From the NCBI RefSeq assembly GCF_003334255.1, contig NZ_QOWU01000048.1: DNA of 43,440 bases; one strand, written 5' to 3'. Both the position numbers and the translations under genes were made by a program. This document shows, piece by piece, positions 3,922 to 15,118 of the stretch. The notes under the pieces were generated by a model. The model searched no databases. It was not told the DNA's origin and was given only the letters and a program-made list of their open reading frames with translations. Within the stretch, counting starts at the first letter, position 1. Each line of letters starts with the position of its first letter. Source of the DNA: Escherichia coli. GTDB lineage: Bacteria; Pseudomonadota; Gammaproteobacteria; Enterobacterales; Enterobacteriaceae.

Positions 3922-4779
3922 TCAGGGAGAAGCTGTGGCCAGCCGGCTGTAATTGCGGTTACGTGACAGAATCATGCGCTCCTTCACACGACGCTCCACT
4001 TCGCGTTTTACCGCCTCACCATTAGCAGTGAAGCGTCCTTCCGAGATTTCACGCGTCAGCTGCCGTTTCACCAGGGTGACGATATCCTGACGTTCTCTGT
4101 TCGCATCACGACGCGCACGGGCACGTTTTATTCCACGGGACTTAAGCTCTGTCTGGTAACTGCGGAAACGCTCACGCACAAAACGCCAGGCTTTCGCTAT
4201 CAGCTCATCCATACCCAGGGTATCCAGCCCCTGCTTTTTGCGCTGTTTGTTTTCCCATTCAACACGACTGCGGCGCGCAGCTGCCACTGCATCCTCAGAC
4301 ACATCAAGGGCAGCAAACAGAGCCAGTGTGAACGTGATGTCGGTCGGAATGTAGCACCCGATAAGCGGGTCATATTCCGTCTGGTAGGTAATCAGTCCCA
4401 GCTCTGACAGGAACGTCAGGGCCCGGGTGGCACGGGTGATGGAGAGTTTTCCTGCACCGGACTCTGTCGCCAGTCCGCACTCAATGGCCAGTGTGGTGAT
4501 GGAACACTGGACGCGGTTGGCCAGCGGGTCATAGTGGAAACACAGCCCCTGCAGCAGCGCATCAATAGCCCGTCGACGCAGCACCGGTGGCATGCGCCGA
4601 CGCAGACCACGGGAACGGGCATGCGCCACATGAATGGCGAAATCAAAACGGGAGGTGAAGCCCACCGCCTTTTCCATCAGTTTTTCGCAGAACTTCAGCG
4701 TTCCGGCACCTTCACGGGGAGTGAACACCGGATTCGGGTTCTTTACCTGGCGGTAATACGTTTGGTGAAGATCAGTCAC
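3922..4779 (-). CDS. repA1: RepA1 replication initiator (IncFII/RepFIIA), 285 aa, GTG start
   Basis: Protein (V/M)[36 protein letters not shown]... matches R100/R1 RepA1 over its full length. GTG start at 4779..4777 is preceded by AGGA and overlapped by the tap stop codon. ORF-track start at 4791 is an over-extension. Confidence 0.9.
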
Positions 4780-4846
4780 ACCATCCTGCACTTACAATGC
4801 GCAGAAGGAGCGAGCACAGAAAGAAGTCTTGAACTTTTCCGGGCAT
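4772..4846 (-). CDS. tap: tap (repA6) leader peptide, 24 aa, translationally coupled to repA1
   Basis: Minus-strand translation from the ATG at 4846: [24 protein letters not shown], which matches the R1/R100 Tap peptide as I recall it. Its TGA lies just 3' of the repA1 GTG. Confidence 0.75.
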
Positions 4847-4869
4847 ATAACTATACTCCCCGCATAGCT

Positions 4870-4956
4870 GAATTGTTGGCTATACGGTTTAAGTGGGCCC
4901 CGGTAATCTTTTCGTACTCGCCAAAGTTGAAGAAGATTATCGGGGTTTTTGCTTTT
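4870..4956 (+). ncRNA. copA: CopA antisense RNA (copy-number control), approximate bounds
   Basis: Lies on the strand opposite the repA leader, between copB and tap. Imperfect long hairpin (CCCCGGTAATCTT...AAGATTATCGGGG) followed by TTTTTGCTTTT at about 4898-4956, as expected for the CopA terminator stem-loop. 5' end not determined. Confidence 0.5.
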
Positions 4957-5070: not shown

Positions 5071-5331
5071 TTACTTTAGTATATCCAGTCTCTGCAGTTC
5101 ATCTTTGATGATTTTCTCAACGAACTGAGCCTGTGTTATCCCCTCTCTCTCGCAGTACTCAACCATGAGATCTTTCAGAGGATTTTTGACAAAAACTTTT
5201 ATCTCTTTGTGTGTAAGACGTTTTCTTGCAACAGCGGCCATTTGTTTCTCAGAGTCAGTCATAGGCTTACCTCTGCGCACAAACCGCTTTTGACTCAATG
5301 AGGAAGTCACTGCATTTTCTGTCTGCGACAT
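5071..5331 (-). CDS. repA2: RepA2/CopB transcriptional repressor of repA, 86 aa
   Basis: [39 protein letters not shown]... matches CopB. ATG at 5331 with a GAGGAGG RBS upstream. Confidence 0.9.
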
Positions 5332-5494: not shown

Positions 5495-5577
5495 TTATGG
5501 AAACGCCGGGAGCGGGGAAAACTTGCTTTTTCCCGTTTCCGGGGTTGGACAACTGAGCAACGCGAAGGCGTCAGCTA
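5495..5577. repeat. Copy 1 of an ~80 bp hairpin-containing repeat (second copy at about 17475-17552)
   Basis: Shared blocks 'GGAAACGCCGGG' and 'CCGGGGTTGGACAAC.GAGCAA.GCGA.GGCGTCAG' flank a copy-specific hairpin. Lies between the DUF2726-like gene and repA2. Confidence 0.5.
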
Positions 5578-6161
5578 CGATGTTCCGGGGACTGCTGATC
5601 AGCCCCTGTTGTATTCAGCCATTCTCCGGTCATCTGCAGCAGTTTTCTGGCATCGTGGCTTCTGAGCAACGGAATACCAGCCTGCCTCAGAACCTCTTCC
5701 AGAAAAATATCCCGGCGTCTGCGTTCCGGTCGTAAATGTCTGGCATCATCCAGCTCTACTGCTGCAACAATACTGAACGAAAGCCGCTCAACGATAACCA
5801 CATCAACATGCCACTGAGACACCATCCTGAATAACTGCCACCACTGGCGTGATCGTGGCCGGATATTCCCGTTCAGCTGGACGATATCCGCGACCCGTAC
5901 CTGCGGACACAGATACCACCGCTTCATATCCACAATTCTGAACAGTCCTTTCATAAAACTGACTTCCCTTTCTGTCAGCAGCGTCTTCTGACGTTGCCAG
6001 TATTCACCGCCGGACAGTATTCGCTCTGCATCACCGGTCCGTATACCTGCCGCATGCAACTGCATCAGCAAAGGAGAATGCTGATTTACACTTCTGAGGA
6101 TAATCCGGATAAGTAACGCTGCAATAATCAGAACAATGAGAATAAAAATAATCAGCTTCAT
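5571..6161 (-). CDS. N-terminally membrane-anchored protein, probably DUF2726-type, 196 aa
   Basis: Hydrophobic N-terminus (MKLIIFILIVLIIAALLIRIIL) followed by a soluble domain. Occupies the position and has the size of the conserved IncF backbone gene next to the hha-like gene. Domain assignment is from memory, not motif-proven. Confidence 0.5.
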   Translation of the reverse strand: MKLIIFILIVLIIAALLIRIILRSVNQHSPLLMQLHAAGIRTGDAERILSGGEYWQRQKTLLTEREVSFMKGLFRIVDMKRWYLCPQVRVADIVQLNGNIRPRSRQWWQLFRMVSQWHVDVVIVERLSFSIVAAVELDDARHLRPERRRRDIFLEEVLRQAGIPLLRSHDARKLLQMTGEWLNTTGADQQSPEHRS

Positions 6162-6198
6162 TGTTTATCTGCTCCTGGTAATTAATTATGCTGAATTA

Positions 6199-6408
6199 TT
6201 ACCTTACATATTTCCATATCTCTTTTGGTATCCTGTCATATAACTTTCCGGTGATTAATTCCGCTAACCGGTGGTCTGCTGCTGAATTAAATGATTCACG
6301 TTCACTGGTTGATAAACTGTCTCTGTTTTTATGAATAATTTTTTCCAGCGTATTGACTGATGAACATCGCCGTAACTGATACAGCCATTCCTGTTTTGTT
6401 TTTGCCAT
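6199..6408 (-). CDS. Hha/YmoA-family expression modulator (RmoA-like), 69 aa
   Basis: ...[22 protein letters not shown]...[30 protein letters not shown] closely parallels Hha ([23 protein letters not shown]...[22 protein letters not shown]). Confidence 0.85.
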   Translation of the reverse strand: [69 protein letters not shown]

Positions 6409-6453
6409 TTTTATTCCCGCTGAGAACAGATGAATGATAAGATTGCCAGCGCT

Positions 6454-6915
6454 TTATTTACGGTGTCTCCATATCCAGGGGGGAACCGGATCAGCATCTG
6501 ACCAGAGCCCACGTTTTTGTTGTCTGGCTTCGTTCTGAAAGACAGGCAGCGCGGGATCTGTGTTGTACTGCTCATATACCCAGGCAGCCCCGGCCCGGAC
6601 CATAAACTGATTAACATTCATTCCGTCTGGTGCATAAACCTGCCCGAGAATACGACCATAACGATCTCGCTGAAAATATGTGACGGTAACCGTTTTTCCT
6701 GCAACCAGTGATTTCATCATGTCTGTCGACCACCGGCCATAATCCTGTTTCTTTTCCGGTGCATCAATATTTACCAGCCTGATCCGCACCGCCTTCCGTG
6801 AGTCCATGACCTCGATGGTATCACCGTCCAGTACACGAACAACCCGTCCATGAATATCTGCACACAATACCGGCCATGAAAAGATAAATAATACCAGTGG
6901 AATATATTTCCTCAT
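6454..6915 (-). CDS. Secreted thermonuclease (staphylococcal nuclease/SNase-like), about 153 aa
   Basis: Signal-peptide-like N-terminus (MRKYIPLVLFIFSWPVLCA) followed by SNase-like blocks ('DGDT', 'RIRLVNIDAPE', 'YGR', 'GLWSD'). Start trimmed to the ATG at 6915, which has a GGAGA RBS. ORF-track start at 6975 is an over-extension. Confidence 0.8.
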   Translation of the reverse strand: MRKYIPLVLFIFSWPVLCADIHGRVVRVLDGDTIEVMDSRKAVRIRLVNIDAPEKKQDYGRWSTDMMKSLVAGKTVTVTYFQRDRYGRILGQVYAPDGMNVNQFMVRAGAAWVYEQYNTDPALPVFQNEARQQKRGLWSDADPVPPWIWRHRK

Positions 6916-6993
6916 GTTATTCTCCATATCAGATAAATAGCACCTGTATTTCATGCATCCTGAATATTGCAGCACACACTGAATAACACCTTA

Positions 6994-7015
6994 TTTTGTG
7001 AAATTAATCACAAAA
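6994..7015. promoter_or_regulatory. CRP-like palindrome TGTGA-N6-TCACA upstream of the nuclease gene
   Basis: Sequence TTTTGTGAAATTAATCACAAAA has perfect TGTGA/TCACA half-sites with a 6-nt spacer, about 90 bp upstream of the nuclease ATG. Confidence 0.35.
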
Positions 7016-7472
7016 TATAAAATCACGACTTAATACGGAAAAAACTCTGTGCTACTCAGAACTGTCCGGTCATACTTCCCGACCGGATATTAAAAAAAGC
7101 AAATCTCATGCATTATTCAGCCTTCTGAATCCCTGGAGTAATGAAGGCTGCTTTTTCGTTACACCCTTCCCCGGCAGCGCCGGTGGCAGTGTTCAGCCCT
7201 TTTTCGGGCAAACTGCTGCCAGTCTGTCCGGGGAGCAGACTGCGCAGCCCGTAGCCATGCCTCAGCGGCTCCCGGCCAGTCCCCCCTGACTTCCAGCCGG
7301 ACAGCCCGGCGTCCGACCTGCCGGTAGCGCCATACCCCGGAGTTTTGCGAATCACGCCCTGTTCCGTTCATTTTCCTTCCCCCTTTAATCCAGGCCGGTG
7401 AATGTGTTATAAATTTTTATAACCTTCTTCTGCCGGGTATGGAAGAAGGTTTCAGAGAAGCCTTATTTTTCC

Positions 7473-7504
7473 GCCTCCTTTAGTGTGAAGGAGGCTTTTT
7501 TATT
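7473..7504 (+). terminator. Intrinsic-terminator-like hairpin (GCCTCCTT-N8-AGGAGGC followed by TTTTTTATT) at the finO 3' end
   Basis: Perfect 7-8 bp GC-rich stem followed by a T-run on the plus strand. Overlaps the finO stop codon. May terminate plus-strand read-through or act bidirectionally. Confidence 0.4.
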
Positions 7505-8060
7505 GTTCATCAAGCACGGCCTGAAGTTCTGCCTTTATCCGGTTCTGGCGGCGGATTTTATCCAGACGCTCTGCCGCATACACTTCTTCCTCCTGAGAAA
7601 TATGCTCCGTCACATACCCTTCCGTGTCATACCGGCAGGCACCGGCTTTCATGGCACACAGATAGCTTTCTGAACGGGTGATGGCCTTCAGCGCCCTGCG
7701 CAGTTTTTTATGCGAGAGCGGGATATTCCGCTGCGCCACGTCTTCCAGTAACACGTCCCGGATACCGCAGGCCAGAAGTCGGGGTGTGTCACCGTCAAAT
7801 AATCCCGGCCACCAGGGTTTCAGGGTGTTCACGGCCTCATCCAGCGAGGGCAGGTTCAGATAAATGGACAGCGCCTGTCTGGCCTGCGCTTTTTTTGCTG
7901 TCAGCTCTGCTTCCCGGGCAGCCTTCTCCGCCAGTTTCTGCTTTTTCACCTTCCATTTTGGTGGCGTGGTGACATTGATGATGGTTTTCCGGCTCCGGGT
8001 CGGTGTTTCCCCTTCCGTTTTCCGTTTCAGTGTCAGTACCGGTCGTTTCTGCTCTGTCAT
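7500..8060 (-). CDS. finO: FinO fertility-inhibition RNA chaperone, 186 aa (intact)
   Basis: [25 protein letters not shown]... with a Lys/Arg-rich N-terminus matches FinO. Full length, with no IS interruption. Confidence 0.9.
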
Positions 8061-8162: not shown

Positions 8163-9023
8163 TTAAAGATGTTTTTTAAACCATTGCGTCTGTACTGCCG
8201 CCACACGTTCAAAAAACGCGCCTTCATAAATATCATAATGGCATGCGTCAGCTTCCTCGTATAATTCCTTAGTACCAGAAGCAACAGCATCATATAAGGC
8301 TTTTCCCTGTTCTGGTGGATTAACACTATCCTGGCCGGCAATAACAATCAAAACTGGGCACTGTACTTTGGCTGCGCTCTCTGCCGGTTTATATTGCAAC
8401 GTCTCCATAACCGTAAGGAAAGGTATTTTTATATCCATTTCAGGATACTGACCTTTTACCTTCTCGAAGAATACCTTTGATTCATTATCACTCAGTACCC
8501 GGGTAACCCCCACAAACATCTCTTTCCCGGTGTTTTTCTTCTTCTCTGCCATTTTATTCAGCGTGGACAGAAAAGACGCTCTCTCCGATTCATTCATCTC
8601 TCCGGTAACCAGAACATCACCGTCAGCAAAAGCCAGCTGGCTGACAATACATTTTACGCGTTGGTCCTGCGCAGCTGCACTGAAGACATGCCCCCCTCCC
8701 AGCGATGTTCCCCATAACCCAATACGCTGATTATCAATACATTCCTGCTTTTCTGCCCAATTGATAACTGAAATAATATCTTCGGTCTGCATTGCAGGAA
8801 CCAGACGCCCTCGTTCTCCATCACTCTCACCGAATCCTCGATAATCAAAAGTAATCGTTGCGAATCCTGCTTCTGTGAAGGCATTCGCAAAGCAAGGGAG
8901 CAGAACATTCCTGATACCGCAAAACCCATGGCATAAGATAATCAAAGGATGTTTTATATTTCCTTCAGGAACACGAAATGTCAGGGCAATACCTTCAGAG
9001 AGTTTGTGATCCGTAATTTTCAT
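8163..9023 (-). CDS. Alpha/beta-hydrolase-fold protein (esterase/dienelactone-hydrolase-like), 286 aa
   Basis: Nucleophile elbow 'GLWGTSLGGG' (G-x-S-x-G), 'HGFCG' oxyanion region, and C-terminal Asp/His candidates. Sits between traX and finO, where F-like plasmids carry variable cargo. Confidence 0.75.
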   Translation of the reverse strand: MKITDHKLSEGIALTFRVPEGNIKHPLIILCHGFCGIRNVLLPCFANAFTEAGFATITFDYRGFGESDGERGRLVPAMQTEDIISVINWAEKQECIDNQRIGLWGTSLGGGHVFSAAAQDQRVKCIVSQLAFADGDVLVTGEMNESERASFLSTLNKMAEKKKNTGKEMFVGVTRVLSDNESKVFFEKVKGQYPEMDIKIPFLTVMETLQYKPAESAAKVQCPVLIVIAGQDSVNPPEQGKALYDAVASGTKELYEEADACHYDIYEGAFFERVAAVQTQWFKKHL

Positions 9024-9847: not shown

Positions 9848-12800
9848 TCAGTCTCCGCCCAGGGTTTTCTCTTTCTGCAGGTCACGAACCATATCCCGCT
9901 CCATCTGCTGCAGACGCTCCTGCAGCAGATTTTCCCGGGCAACCTCCCGGACCGCTTCCCGCTCCCGTTGTGATTCACGCAGCACACTCTCCGGCAGTGC
10001 GGTTTCCCGTTCAGATATGGCAGACCGGTCACGCTCCTGTCCGGCAATATCCCTGACAGCCAGCTCTGTTTTGCCGTCCGGCAGGTCAGGTTTGTTCTCT
10101 GCCATTTTCCTGACAATTTCATCTGCGCGGCGTTCCGTTTCACGGCGGATGGCCTCTTCAGCCTGCCGCTGTGCCAGTACCTCTGCCGTGACCGGTTCGC
10201 CATTTCCGGCACCCGGCTGGACGCTGTTGTCCGGGATATCCCCCCACACGCGGCCACCGGTGATGGCACCGGGATTCCACGGGCGACCTTCACCGGCGAT
10301 TCTTACCACCACACCACTGTCAGGATTATCACGGGCAATCCGGACGCCATCCTGCATATTATCAGCCAGCAGGCTCTCTCCGTTACGGCTGCCCTGCAGG
10401 GCCACGAACTGCGCATCCCCGCTGCCTTTCACCCGTCCTTCACCACTGAATCCCCGCAGCCCGTTTCCGTCATCCGTGGTCAGTGGGTTCAGCCAGATAC
10501 CAGCTGACTTGCCGTTACGGTCAAACGCCGGCAGTGCCACATGCGGCTGCGGATATTTACGTCCCGGTGCAATAAACCGTGCAGGGCTGTCTCCCCCGGC
10601 CAGCCCTGCCTGACGGAGAACGGCACGGCCTGCCGCCACGTCCCGCAGTTCCCGTGCCGTACTGAACAGCCGCTGCGCATTCATGACCTCCCGGTCCGGT
10701 TTCGGCTCCAGCACATCGTGGGCAGTTCCTTTCTGTACGGCATTGTTAATGGCATCCGTCCAGCCCTGACGGTTATCGGTGTACACCTGCACATGCTGCT
10801 TCATACGCGACAGGGCCACGTAGGCTGACTCAAAGCCGGCCATCAGTTTCCGGTTACCTTCCGTGCCTTCAAGCGCGATGGCAAAGGTTTCACTCGCCCC
10901 CTGCGCACCGTGGGCGGTGATGGCATAAGCCAGGTCAATATGTTGCTCTGCCCGCTCCTGGCCGGGGCGAATCACCCGGGTCTGCTGTCCGTCTGACAGC
11001 GTGACACTGTCACCGGAAACCGCTGTCACCGTCCAGACGCTGTTGGCCACATAACCGCGCTCCCGGTCACTCTTCGTGAAGCGCATCCGGTCGCCGGTCC
11101 CCACCCGGATTTTGTCCGGGGTGTACAGTGTGACACCTTCAGCCACCGCCTCCCGGGGCGAAATCAGCCGCGTGTTACCTTCCGCATCCTCCAGGGTTAT
11201 CAGCCCGTCATCCTTGCTGATACCGGCAATCCGGTGATACACACTATCCACCAGGGCAAGGGCATCCGGGTTATTCTCCCAGGTGGAGAGACGACGCAGC
11301 TCCCCGTCACGTATATTCGCTGTGTTCAGGACAGGCACCATGACCTGCTCTTTCCCCAGCTCACCGGCCTTTTCCCGTGCATCATGAATCATGCTGTTCA
11401 GTACGCGCCGGTCCTCATTCAGGTGCGTGACAATCAGCGTCTGCTCCCGTGCTTCCGGTGTCCTGCCGGTATAGTCGCGGACAATGGCTTCATACAGTGT
11501 CATGGGGACATCCGGAAAAGTCTCACCTTTCAGCATCGCCTTCTGCTGCGCTTCTGCCAGTTTCGCTTCCTGGCTGTGACTGAACTCCGTCACGGAGTGC
11601 TCCGGTGCCCATGCGCCCTCCTGACGGGGAACCTGAGACGGTTTCACACTCTCAAGCCCGGACAGTGCCCTTTCCACATCCCGGTTAATCAGGCTGTATA
11701 CCGCCTCCCGCAGTTCCGGCGTCTGACGCACAATCTCCTTCATGATGACCACATCGGCAGCACTGCGCGTCTGCTGGAGACGGAAAGGCTGACCGGGCGC
11801 GATGGCCTGCAGCTGGTCCGTGTCACCACTGGCCACGGCACGACCGCCACCGGCCGCAATCAGGGCGTATGCCCGTGCCATGTCGGTATTGCCCACCATT
11901 GAGCTCTCATCGAGCAGGAACAGCGTGTTGCTGAAATCCGGCGTTTCTCCGCTGCGCTGCTGCAGCTGCGTGTCATGCAGAAAGGACGCCAGCGTCTGTG
12001 CATCCACGCCGGCGCTGCGCATCTCACCGACCGCACGGTGCGTGGGCCCCAGCCCCACAACTCGGGGACGCTCACTCGCCGGCAGCATGTTCACGGCTGA
12101 CATCACCGCCCGGAACTGTGTGGTCTTACCCACCCCGGCATACCCCTGCACCACCGTGAAACGGTCGGACGTTTCCAGTATCATGCGGGTGGCGGCACGC
12201 TGTCCTGATGTCAGTTTCTCCATGAGTTCGCCAGGTACTCTCTCCATCAGCGGCGTGACCGCCTCCTTACCTTCGAGAATATGGCGAAGAATACTTTTTT
12301 CTGCCTCATACGACGCACGGGAAACCAGCAGGCCTGTGCCATAGCCTTTTGCCACATCCACATACAGTAAGTCACCGCGTTTTATCTGCGCATTGATTTC
12401 CCCTCCCAGTTCAGTAAAACCGGTTCCTTCTGCAGCAAACGACTTCGCCTCTGTCAGCAGGTCCACCATGCTGAAGGCCAGGTTTTTACTTTCCAGCACA
12501 GGAAGGGCCAGATGAATGGCCTGCTGTGCCGGCGTGTGCAGCCCGGTTTTCTGCAGACTGATAGCGGTTTCCAGCGATGTCTCACCGGCCCGCGCCTTTA
12601 TCTGCTCAGAAACCACCGTAAAGGAGGGATGGCGGGCAAGTTTTTCCGCAGTACGGGTTTCATCCAGTGAGGAATACAGCCGGACATCACGACCGCTGCG
12701 GGCCAGACCGTTCAGGGTGGCGTTGTCCATTGCCATCTGTGTGACGGAGGCAAACACCGTCGCACTGTCACTGACGGAATGCCCGGGCGTTTCCACCCAG

Positions 12801-15118
12801 CCGTTCTCCAGCTTCAGTGCCGTGAACGGTGAATCAGCCACAGGCAGGGTGGCCGGTTCAGCCCGCCCCGGCACAACAACCGTCATCGCATCTTCACTGA
12901 CGGATGCCACCTGCAGGCGGTCACCGCCGGAGACGCGGAGTCTGGGAATTTTCCCTGTCACCCTCAGTCGCTCGCCGTCTGCCACCGGCATTTTTTCCGG
13001 CCGGAACAGCGACCAGCTGCTGTCCAGGGAGGAAATACGCACCACCTGCGTTTCGCCCTGCGCATCCCGCAGGGTCAGGCTGTGACTCTGCGCCGTCACC
13101 CGGTCGATAACATAGCGGTCATGACTGCGTGTCTCCGGGTTCCACTGCTCCATCACCATCCCCGGTCGGTACATATCCCGCAGATAACGGCTCCGGCTGT
13201 CCAGCCAGACCGGTGACAGGGCGGTCATGGTTACTTCCGGGTGTCCGAGCACGCCCTGTGTTTTCAGCTCACTGCGAATGGCCTGGGTCAGAATGGCCTG
13301 TTCCCGTACCCCGCTGACCTGTGCCACGCTCTCTTCTCCGGCTTTCACGCTGGCCGCAAAATCCCCGGCCAGCCGGGCATAGCGGACATTACGGTCCGGT
13401 TCACTGATGATGGTTGCCGGTCGCTGCTCTCCGCCCTGCCAGCGATATATGTTCACCCCGGCATCCTTCATGGCCATCAGCGCACTGCCTGTACCGGTTC
13501 GCTGCCCGCTGTCGGTTATCAGGACCTGTACGTTATGACGTGCGGCACCGTCCAGCAGGGTTAACGTCTCTTTCAGGGAGAGTTTTTCGCCCTGGTCAAC
13601 GATAACAGTACTGCCCGGCGTGAAGGCCATGCCTTCCAGCAGCTGACGACGTCCGGTTATCAGCTCACCGGACAACCGTTCATCCTGCTTCAGGTTCATC
13701 TGCGAGCGACGGTCAGCAGCGATAATCTGCACCTCCCGCCCCTGCTCCCGGGCCATCATGACCAGTTCAGCCACCCGCTCACGCTGCCCGGCTGCACCGC
13801 CCTGCCCGGACACAATGGCCAGCGACGGACGGTCCTGTGCCAGAACACTGACCGCATCGCTGTAACCAGCCGTCCGGGGGACACTTTTCTCCGGATGTAC
13901 GGTCACCCGGTTCTGTTTCATGATGTCACGACTGAGTGCCCGGACTGACAGCTCATCGAGCACATGAATCCCGGACGTGAACAGCCCCTTCTCACGATCG
14001 AGGGGGATAAGCTTCTCACGGCTGATGGCCTCATCGATACCGGCGCGTGCCCGTTCAATCACACCATTTTCCGGCGGCAGTATGCCGACCGTTCTGGCCA
14101 GCACGTCCGTGTACGTAAACTGCACTTTTCGTTCACTTAATCCGGCAATGGCCTGTGTCACCGCCTGCTGCACATCCGGCCCCTCCTGTGAAACAGCCCC
14201 GGGCGCCTGCGTGCGGGTCTCCGCACGCTGATCCGCCGCGTCACGATATGCCCGGATGTCGAACCCGGTTTCCTTCAGCGTCTGCATCCATTCAGCCATT
14301 CTGACTTCAGGATCGACGTGCTGTTTGGATTTTCGCGTATCCAGTGCCGCCACATCCCGGGATTTCAGCGAGGCATCTTCCCCGACGGCCTCCCGGATTG
14401 CCTGTGAGCGTCCGGAAAAGGCCTCCACCGGTACGCCCGGCATCTCCCACATACCGTGCTTACCCACCACTTCGGTTTCATAGCCCAGCGCCTCAACCTG
14501 CTCTTTCAGTTTTTCCCGGTAGAGCCTGCCAAAGGCAATCTGATTAGCGTACACATTCTCAATGAACCCCGTTTTCCCCACTTTGTCACTGCTCAGTGTC
14601 TTCCATTCGCCGTTATGCTGCGTGACATTAGCCACCACCGCATGCGTGTGTAACTGTGGTTCCTGATCGCGACTGGTGTCGTGGTTAAACAGTGCCATCA
14701 CCAGATTACCGGTCAGCACCGTTTCTGACTGTCCGTCCGTCATCACCCGTGTGGAGGCCAGCGCCTCCACCTGACGAACAGCAAAGTCCACGGCCTGGTT
14801 ATGTGCATCAATCAGGCGCTTATCGCCACCTAACATGGCCATCATGGAGACACTTTTGGGGGCGGAGAAGGTCAGGTCGTAGCCGGGACGATGCCTGTTA
14901 CTGCCATCCTGCATGCGGCTTAGATCCGCTCCATCCGGCAGCCTTCCCTCCAGAAGACGGGTAAAAACATCCTTATCGACACTGCCCTGCAGTCCCAGCT
15001 GTTCAGCCCCCCTGCCGGCCCAGCGTTCTCCCATGCTGCCCAGCACATAGTAATTATCCTTGTCGGTATAATAGTTACCGGCACTTCCGGCCGATCTGAC
15101 CTGCGCAATACTCATCAT
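9848..15118 (-). CDS. traI: TraI relaxase/helicase (DNA helicase I), 1756 aa
   Basis: Full-length colinear match to F TraI ([35 protein letters not shown]... through ...KEKTLGGD), including the N-terminal relaxase region and the 'GYAGVGKTT' Walker A of the helicase. Confidence 0.95.
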   Translation of the reverse strand: MMSIAQVRSAGSAGNYYTDKDNYYVLGSMGERWAGRGAEQLGLQGSVDKDVFTRLLEGRLPDGADLSRMQDGSNRHRPGYDLTFSAPKSVSMMAMLGGDKRLIDAHNQAVDFAVRQVEALASTRVMTDGQSETVLTGNLVMALFNHDTSRDQEPQLHTHAVVANVTQHNGEWKTLSSDKVGKTGFIENVYANQIAFGRLYREKLKEQVEALGYETEVVGKHGMWEMPGVPVEAFSGRSQAIREAVGEDASLKSRDVAALDTRKSKQHVDPEVRMAEWMQTLKETGFDIRAYRDAADQRAETRTQAPGAVSQEGPDVQQAVTQAIAGLSERKVQFTYTDVLARTVGILPPENGVIERARAGIDEAISREKLIPLDREKGLFTSGIHVLDELSVRALSRDIMKQNRVTVHPEKSVPRTAGYSDAVSVLAQDRPSLAIVSGQGGAAGQRERVAELVMMAREQGREVQIIAADRRSQMNLKQDERLSGELITGRRQLLEGMAFTPGSTVIVDQGEKLSLKETLTLLDGAARHNVQVLITDSGQRTGTGSALMAMKDAGVNIYRWQGGEQRPATIISEPDRNVRYARLAGDFAASVKAGEESVAQVSGVREQAILTQAIRSELKTQGVLGHPEVTMTALSPVWLDSRSRYLRDMYRPGMVMEQWNPETRSHDRYVIDRVTAQSHSLTLRDAQGETQVVRISSLDSSWSLFRPEKMPVADGERLRVTGKIPRLRVSGGDRLQVASVSEDAMTVVVPGRAEPATLPVADSPFTALKLENGWVETPGHSVSDSATVFASVTQMAMDNATLNGLARSGRDVRLYSSLDETRTAEKLARHPSFTVVSEQIKARAGETSLETAISLQKTGLHTPAQQAIHLALPVLESKNLAFSMVDLLTEAKSFAAEGTGFTELGGEINAQIKRGDLLYVDVAKGYGTGLLVSRASYEAEKSILRHILEGKEAVTPLMERVPGELMEKLTSGQRAATRMILETSDRFTVVQGYAGVGKTTQFRAVMSAVNMLPASERPRVVGLGPTHRAVGEMRSAGVDAQTLASFLHDTQLQQRSGETPDFSNTLFLLDESSMVGNTDMARAYALIAAGGGRAVASGDTDQLQAIAPGQPFRLQQTRSAADVVIMKEIVRQTPELREAVYSLINRDVERALSGLESVKPSQVPRQEGAWAPEHSVTEFSHSQEAKLAEAQQKAMLKGETFPDVPMTLYEAIVRDYTGRTPEAREQTLIVTHLNEDRRVLNSMIHDAREKAGELGKEQVMVPVLNTANIRDGELRRLSTWENNPDALALVDSVYHRIAGISKDDGLITLEDAEGNTRLISPREAVAEGVTLYTPDKIRVGTGDRMRFTKSDRERGYVANSVWTVTAVSGDSVTLSDGQQTRVIRPGQERAEQHIDLAYAITAHGAQGASETFAIALEGTEGNRKLMAGFESAYVALSRMKQHVQVYTDNRQGWTDAINNAVQKGTAHDVLEPKPDREVMNAQRLFSTARELRDVAAGRAVLRQAGLAGGDSPARFIAPGRKYPQPHVALPAFDRNGKSAGIWLNPLTTDDGNGLRGFSGEGRVKGSGDAQFVALQGSRNGESLLADNMQDGVRIARDNPDSGVVVRIAGEGRPWNPGAITGGRVWGDIPDNSVQPGAGNGEPVTAEVLAQRQAEEAIRRETERRADEIVRKMAENKPDLPDGKTELAVRDIAGQERDRSAISERETALPESVLRESQREREAVREVARENLLQERLQQMERDMVRDLQKEKTLGGD

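Follow-up and report, generated by a model that had tools for sequence, protein, structure and literature searches.

The interval between finO and repA2 in a 43,440-nt stretch of Escherichia coli DNA (contig NZ_QOWU01000048.1 of assembly GCF_003334255.1; hereafter the window), which represents an F-like plasmid backbone, carries the genes nuc, rmoA and yihA and is the usual finO–repA2 interval of R100-type IncFII plasmids. Our best explanation of the whole, which we hold with somewhat less than even confidence, is an R100-type module placed in this slot, in which an ANR-family gene and an antisense RNA are followed by a probable operon for a predicted exported SNase-family nuclease (Nuc), an Hha/YmoA-family co-regulator of H-NS (RmoA), and a DUF2726 protein (YihA). 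The family identities of these genes are close to certain. YihA is predicted, from its sequence and a structural model, to be a membrane-tethered nuclease with an intact active-site signature. A clearly more tentative part of the explanation, drawn from sequence features and from analogy with recently described systems, is that the two nucleases might act in the envelope as a barrier to incoming DNA.

The genes themselves are already known: nuc–rmoA–yihA are long-annotated and very common backbone genes. A 2.5-kb query across the region matched at least 5000 plasmid records, several of them with 100% identity, and identical records are annotated in RefSeq as 'thermonuclease family protein / hha / DUF2726 domain-containing protein'. 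The same gene order is found in R100 (NC_002134), and compared with the R100 copies, FinO and the ANR protein are identical, RmoA and the SNase differ by 2 residues each, and the DUF2726 protein differs by 3. The same four open reading frames (ORFs) have also been listed for the enterotoxin plasmid pEntH10407 (PMC2762410), and one GenBank record calls the DUF2726 gene yihA. Among 5426 complete E. coli genomes, intact copies (at least 80% coverage, nearly all plasmid-borne) were counted in 1807 for the SNase gene, 1704 for rmoA, and 1806 for the DUF2726 gene, and about 1800 genomes have full-length copies at 95% identity or more. Such similar counts would be expected if the genes travel as one unit. 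As the genes are annotated and extremely common, we class the observation as already known; as originally submitted, it re-describes annotated backbone genes of a well-known resistance plasmid and changes little. The leads lie elsewhere: in a membrane-tethered Vsr-like nuclease that tracks elements transferring single-stranded DNA (ssDNA), in its recurrent pairing with a secreted nuclease, and in the regulatory corner upstream of the operon.

The initial annotation had placed an accessory trio between finO and the replicon, and positions 5571-6915 indeed contain exactly three ORFs, all on the minus strand: nuc (6454-6915, 153 aa), rmoA (6199-6408, 69 aa, 37% GC), and yihA (5571-6161, 196 aa), flanked by finO (7500-8060) and repA2/copB (5071-5331), which are likewise on the minus strand. 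The three genes stand, but they are not an isolated unit, as the ANR gene and the antisense RNA AS-pc02 precede them and the slot is variable. The intergenic gaps measure 45 and 37 bp, a Shine-Dalgarno sequence precedes each gene, and a terminator scan gave no terminator-like site on the minus strand between the genes. We therefore regard a three-gene operon, nuc(SNase)–rmoA–yihA(DUF2726), as the probable arrangement.

YihA is the component that deserves most attention. Pfam assigns its residues 59-170 to DUF2726 (PF10881, E=6.7e-21), with a weaker match to REase_MTES_1575 (6e-4), and the SNase assignment of nuc is equally clear (E=1.1e-30), so that both proteins fall into the families proposed for them initially and not into unrelated ones. 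The proposed membrane anchor was confirmed as well: the N-terminal 19-mer has a mean Kyte-Doolittle hydropathy of 3.45, and there is one N-terminal transmembrane helix at about residues 2-27. The description could be taken further, since the region of about 59-170 is a Vsr/DUF559-like PD-(D/E)xK endonuclease-fold domain in which the restriction-endonuclease-like core is present, and the AlphaFold model of the protein is confident (pLDDT 94.6). Relatives are widespread, with 4316 found among 1.84 billion representative proteins. In an alignment of 49 full-length DUF2726 relatives with 26-52% identity, E66, R89, D92, H118, D120, E136, H142, and D151 are invariant, and D138 and D139 are conserved in at least 90%. 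The resulting signature HxD…ExDDxxH…RD is the pattern of Vsr/DUF559-type PD-(D/E)xK enzymes, in agreement with a published classification of DUF2726 (PMC3424549). Compared with solved Vsr/DUF559/I-Bth0305I-type PD-(D/E)xK endonucleases (1cw0, 3hrl, 3r3p), the identity of YihA is merely 18-20%, and the YihA family differs by its conserved N-terminal transmembrane anchor: a hydrophobic N-terminal segment is present in 47 of the 49 relatives. In 46 of the 49, Lys and Arg are commoner in the flank after this segment than in the flank before it, which by the positive-inside rule argues for a cytoplasmic nuclease domain tethered to the inner membrane. YihA itself ties in this count, with one Lys/Arg on each side, and its predicted N-out/C-in topology, with the nuclease domain facing the cytoplasm, is thus a call based on the family. 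Our literature search for papers that mention DUF2726 found no functional test or biochemical study of any such protein.

The product of nuc is predicted from its sequence to be a periplasmic or secreted, Ca2+-dependent enzyme. The Pfam SNase match (PF00565) spans the complete model (1-107 of 107), and thermonucleases in the PDB match at 4e-14. A longer ORF that starts with GTG at 6975 (173 aa) was rejected in favor of ATG 6915, because the latter has a GGAG ribosome-binding site 6 nt upstream, is the RefSeq start, and gives the only form that begins with the putative signal peptide. The N-terminus of this form, MRKYIPLVLFIFSWPVLCA, resembles a Sec signal, with MRK followed by 15 hydrophobic residues and CA. 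Since the residue that precedes the Cys reads as Leu, there is no lipobox, and a lipoprotein was rejected. With a Gram-negative host, the periplasm is the likely compartment. In the alignment with staphylococcal nuclease, D21, R35, D40, E43, R87, Y85, and Y115 correspond to D32, R46, D51, E54, R88, Y86, and Y114 of the window SNase, and T41, which binds via its main-chain carbonyl, corresponds to A52. The two enzymes thus share the OB-fold SNase domain with conserved Ca2+ and catalytic residues, but they are only about 30% identical and the loop of residues 44-49 is absent from the window protein. The protein scores below the cutoffs of both NCBIfam equivalogs EcnA and NucI, and it is therefore a member of the SNase family that is neither of these named enzymes. 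An experimental precedent for the proposed barrier, in an unrelated protein, is YokF, a prophage-encoded membrane nuclease with a thermonuclease domain that blocks plasmid transfer (bioRxiv 10.1101/2025.10.26.684598). Like YokF, the window SNase would be an exported thermonuclease-type enzyme on a mobile element, but it differs from YokF and the SNase precedents in having neither a C-terminal TNM domain nor a lipobox.

RmoA belongs to the Hha/YmoA family, as had been proposed, with 97.9 bits against the curated cutoff of 90 for NCBIfam Hha (NF008191) and a Pfam HHA match at E=9e-24. Its residues 4-69 align with residues 7-72 of Hha (1jw2, 4icg) and with YmoA (2k5s) at E-values of about 1e-20. 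The identity to E. coli Hha amounts to 55%. In Hha, D48 and E25 are needed for H-NS binding, and both are retained as D45 and E22 in RmoA, together with R16/R17 (R13/R14) and C18 (C15); Hha R14 is replaced by Q11. Based on this identity and the conserved D45 and E22, the initial expectation that the protein partners with H-NS is sound, and very probably RmoA does act through H-NS. Like Hha, it would bind host H-NS at the N-terminal domain and in this way reinforce the silencing of AT-rich plasmid DNA by H-NS, which would extend to the tra genes and perhaps to the 37%-GC locus of rmoA itself. The accompanying label of a 'stealth' function is looser, as the stealth concept has been demonstrated for plasmid-encoded H-NS homologues and is not known to have been shown for Hha. 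The one published RmoA phenotype that we traced concerns conjugation, going by the title of the 1998 description of rmoA in R100-1 (Nieto et al. 1998, cited in PMC4864382 and PMC3256949). The window gene is the same gene at the same place downstream of finO as in R100/R100-1, and published rmoA PCR primers (PMC3256949) match its sequence. The window allele differs by S33L and T34N relative to R100, the other 67 of the 69 residues being identical.

When plasmids are compared, the stretch between finO and repA2 proves to be a variable accessory slot. The place of rmoA–yihA is taken by hok/gef in F, pOQX_J9_2, pEc184, and pSH696_117. Plasmid F (L036, NC_002483.1) retains relics of the trio at 1684-2034 and 2725-2752, which correspond to window positions 6828-7178 and 5827-5854. 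Across the F-type plasmids (F, L021, and L022), what is left on either side of hok/gef is some 90 bp from the 5' end of the nuclease gene and short pieces of the DUF2726 gene. The relics imply that the trio was lost from an R100-like ancestor, and thus that the arrangement of the R100 type came first and was replaced later. Other plasmids have different combinations in the slot. In pUTAK-19-4, a PIN-domain gene and a DUF2726 gene are present. In Klebsiella IncFII plasmids, genes for a PIN-domain protein, a hypothetical protein, a DUF2726 protein, and another hypothetical protein are followed by a gene for a PLD-family nuclease that clearly has a signal peptide, and a further F-like contig (L003) has a DUF2726 gene together with a PLD nuclease that also has a signal peptide. 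These PLD-family (Nuc-like) nucleases are encoded at 4976-5527 in L024, 5940-6494 in L026, and 5095-5655 in L003, and in the Klebsiella-type IncFII plasmids the PLD gene lies immediately upstream of repA2, where the SNase gene lies in R100. Beside DUF2726, this position thus repeatedly holds a secreted nuclease, with one or the other of two unrelated folds. The Nuc protein of IncN/IncW plasmids is reportedly a PLD-family periplasmic endonuclease. The window protein resembles it as a predicted secreted nuclease coded beside a plasmid replicon, but has the SNase fold instead of the PLD fold, which makes it a non-homologous replacement and not a member of that family.

More distant relatives of YihA, with 36-54% identity, were surveyed for their gene neighborhoods; P0123 and P0058 were left aside due to their too-short contigs. 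Eight of the ten informative neighborhoods are conjugation or mobilization clusters, and the other two are inoviral. In the former, DUF2726 genes are found between traI and traX, with overlapping codons, between traF and trbB-like/traH, directly after finO in one cluster, after traN with ssb, YqaJ-exonuclease, and CbbQ-type genes downstream, and between mobC and the relaxase gene. In the plasmid contig L011 (1886-2678), a DUF2726 gene (45% identity) overlaps an Hha gene (50% identity) directly after traI, in an order that is the reverse of that in R100, and the TraI C-terminus of this element is 37% identical to that of the window. The two inovirus-adjacent relatives (36-37% identity) are encoded at the edge of the filamentous-phage genes Zot, G8P, G5P, and Rep_trans (L029, 6001-6558) and at the edge of secretin and Zot genes (L041, 595-1152). 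Common to all of these elements is a passage across the inner membrane in the form of ssDNA.

Upstream of the nuclease gene, two more elements of the module lie between finO and nuc. The first is a gene for a 70-aa ANR-family (AraC negative regulator-like) protein (7159-7371, minus strand), annotated by RefSeq as an ANR-family regulator. It passes the NCBIfam ANR cutoff (NF033650; 40.1 bits, cutoff 32), gives no match in a Pfam search, and has 66% GC, compared with 37-50% in the neighboring genes. It differs in its context from the Aar/ANR family as described (PMC5570504, PMC4983702), as the annotation of identical plasmids and of R100 shows no AraC/XylS activator gene for about 3 kb in either direction. 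A study of the IncF ANR copy was not found in the literature. Two features near this gene may be recorded: a conserved hairpin with a T-run, seen in the sequence and in the alignment, lies at 7119-7160, shortly after the ANR stop codon, and the plus strand has two terminator-like sites at 7446-7495, between the ANR gene and finO. The second element is the antisense RNA AS-pc02 (Rfam RF02876; 7079-7262, plus strand), which cmscan detected along the entire model (1-185) at 229.5 bits, where the gathering score is 40, and at E=3.5e-61; its fold z-score is −2.5. The RNA covers the last 104 nt of the ANR gene on the opposite strand, and is present at 80% coverage or more in 2930 of the 5426 complete E. 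coli genomes (54%). The overlap with this Rfam match is also what would equate 'pHK01_099' with the ANR gene, and nothing else does. As the ANR prototype Aar binds H-NS (PMC5570504), the locus may encode two small H-NS-directed modulators, ANR and RmoA, which we offer as a speculation by analogy.

Ahead of the nuclease gene, a spacer of 243 bp with 37% GC contains a perfect CRP-consensus palindrome, TGTGAaattaaTCACA (6997-7012, without strand; consensus TGTGA-N6-TCACA), which is the sole match in the window, where 0.04 would be expected. It overlaps a promoter-like site on the plus strand, TTGTGA-16-TAAAAT (6996-7023). Of ten plasmid loci that were fetched, eight have both half-sites intact, and in L018-L020, which are among the eight, the differences are confined to the 6-bp spacer of the palindrome; a single half-site mismatch is seen in pUTAK-19-4, and in pSH696_117 nothing matches the palindrome with up to one mismatch. 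An input of cAMP-CRP into the nuclease promoter, the divergent AS-pc02 promoter, or both would be conceivable. Two observations speak against control of the nuclease in this way. The palindrome is kept in plasmids that have lost the nuclease gene, and it may therefore serve AS-pc02 or simply be a −35 element. Moreover, when the canonical class I and class II distances of CRP to a −10 element were tried on both strands, there was no convincing fit, and for this reason we leave CRP regulation as a hypothesis that is suggested by the candidate palindrome but for which we see only about one chance in three.

How might the two nucleases act together? As we envisage the envelope barrier, the SNase and YihA would function outside the transfer machine: the SNase would degrade DNA in the periplasm or outside the cell, and membrane-tethered YihA would cut DNA as it arrives on the cytoplasmic side of the inner membrane, its tether keeping it off the nucleoid. 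Rival plasmids, phages (filamentous or other), or transforming DNA may be the targets. The mode of action proposed for YihA, with cutting at entry and tethering as a protection against self-damage, is modeled on its SNIPE-like predicted architecture. SNIPE has an N-out single-pass anchor and a cytoplasmic GIY-YIG nuclease, cuts lambda DNA during injection, and is toxic in its untethered form (bioRxiv 10.1101/2025.11.03.685801). YihA is predicted to share the short periplasmic N-terminus, the single transmembrane helix, and the cytoplasmic nuclease domain, but its fold is Vsr-like PD-(D/E)xK and not GIY-YIG, it lacks the DUF4041 DNA-binding domain (Pfam finds DUF2726 and REase_MTES_1575 only), and with its 196 aa it is much smaller. 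Membership in the SNIPE family was rejected on account of the missing DUF4041 and GIY-YIG domains and the Vsr-like fold, and the two systems are analogous and not homologous.

Several points weigh against such a barrier. PADLOC gives no match for the DUF2726 protein, nor for the Hha and ANR proteins, and for the SNase it gives only a generic SNc+LTD match, so that no known defense system can be called for the trio. The putative signal peptide of the SNase was judged by eye and from the hydropathy profile. The neighborhood sample is small, with its ten informative relatives, and is biased to close relatives of the query, and several of the DUF2726 relatives are translationally coupled in tra operons, which fits a role in transfer equally well. 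Finally, a resident plasmid exports its own ssDNA past the membrane nuclease, and some specificity or inhibition would be needed. An even wider generalization is that DUF2726 proteins might constitute an unrecognized class of inner-membrane-tethered, cytoplasm-facing Vsr-like nucleases that are specific to ssDNA-crossing elements, from F-type and other conjugative or mobilizable plasmids to conjugative elements with ssb, YqaJ-exonuclease, and CbbQ-type genes and to filamentous phages, and that serve as a barrier for superinfection exclusion or against competitors. In that case, incoming DNA would be cut by YihA at its entry point, backed in IncFII plasmids by a periplasmic nuclease of the SNase or PLD fold, and the barrier would be the functional counterpart of SNIPE on a plasmid, adding a third exclusion layer to TraT and TraS. 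We consider this generalization rather unlikely as it stands.

The alternative that survives best, to which we give about the same low weight as to that generalization, is that the DUF2726 nuclease assists conjugative transfer as an accessory factor, perhaps jointly with the periplasmic nuclease, and has a role, for example, in T-strand processing or termination at the membrane or in the establishment in the recipient. The embedding of DUF2726 genes in tra/Dtr operons, often with overlapping stop and start codons, agrees with such a function (traI–DUF2726–traX, traF–…–DUF2726–trbB-like–traH, finO–DUF2726, and mobC–DUF2726–relaxase), as does the fact that the 5000 plasmid records best matched by tblastn include 4148 that are typed as conjugative. 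However, plasmid F, the most transfer-proficient F-like plasmid (PMC5102898), lacks the trio except for the short relics. As F transfers efficiently nevertheless, the trio must be dispensable for efficient transfer, and this weakens a core conjugation factor in particular. In addition, the position of the DUF2726 gene within tra clusters varies, and the two relatives beside filamentous-phage genes have no conjugation genes in view. Less likely still, the secreted SNase could be cargo that benefits the host, by scavenging extracellular DNA as a nutrient or remodeling biofilm eDNA under carbon limitation, with rmoA and yihA as passengers. The apparent signal peptide and the intact Ca2+-type active site are compatible with this, and the CRP-type site upstream would fit catabolite control, but that site survives the loss of the nuclease gene, and neither the pairing of SNase or PLD with DUF2726 in the same slot nor the near-identical prevalence of the three genes would be explained.

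It is improbable that the locus is a stability or addiction device in which YihA is a toxic nuclease that is kept in check by its tether or a partner and is interchangeable with hok/gef. The presence of hok/gef in the place of rmoA–yihA in the four plasmids named above, the PIN-domain genes that accompany DUF2726 in other plasmids, and the toxicity of untethered SNIPE would be in line with it, but an antitoxin-like partner is not evident, and a replacement at a recombination-prone slot does not imply an equal function. Hha-family proteins are not known to act as nuclease antitoxins. Just as improbable are neutral hitch-hikers that are kept by linkage to the replicon and the tra region, since the high variability of the interval and the deletion of the trio in several lineages with relics left behind are outweighed by the invariance of catalytic-type residues among the 49 aligned DUF2726 relatives despite their divergence, the intact SNase active site, the full-length and highly similar copies in so many genomes, and the recurrence of the DUF2726–Hha pairing at 45-50% protein identity where the TraI C-terminus is only 37% identical.

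The surroundings of the module are those of the plasmid backbone. On the minus strand, traI (9848-15118), traX, a gene for an alpha/beta-hydrolase (8163-9023) between traX and finO, and repA1 (3922-4791) were located, and the CopA RNA is encoded on the plus strand (4864-4954). The hydrolase, labeled merely 'alpha/beta hydrolase' in the R100 record, reaches 508.9 bits, above the cutoff of 400, with the NCBIfam equivalog 'UilS family quorum-quenching N-acyl-homoserine lactonase', and its gene is carried by some F-like plasmids and is missing in others.

The initial annotation had described the roles of the neighbors of rmoA as unclear, and this still holds: our literature search, which covered rmoA, yihA/yigB, the IncF thermonuclease, and pKM101 nuc, gave no functional study of either nuclease of the window. 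About a third of the complete E. coli genomes nevertheless encode on their IncF plasmids two envelope nucleases that, judged from their sequences, appear to be active, and with them an H-NS co-regulator. The pairing of an ANR protein with an Hha-family protein, two families that both touch H-NS, could bear on how plasmids tune their own silencing. If the two nucleases do limit the entry of rival plasmids and phages, this would affect which resistance plasmids coexist and which displace one another, and it would also bear on the efficacy of phage- or conjugation-based therapeutics against IncF-bearing strains.

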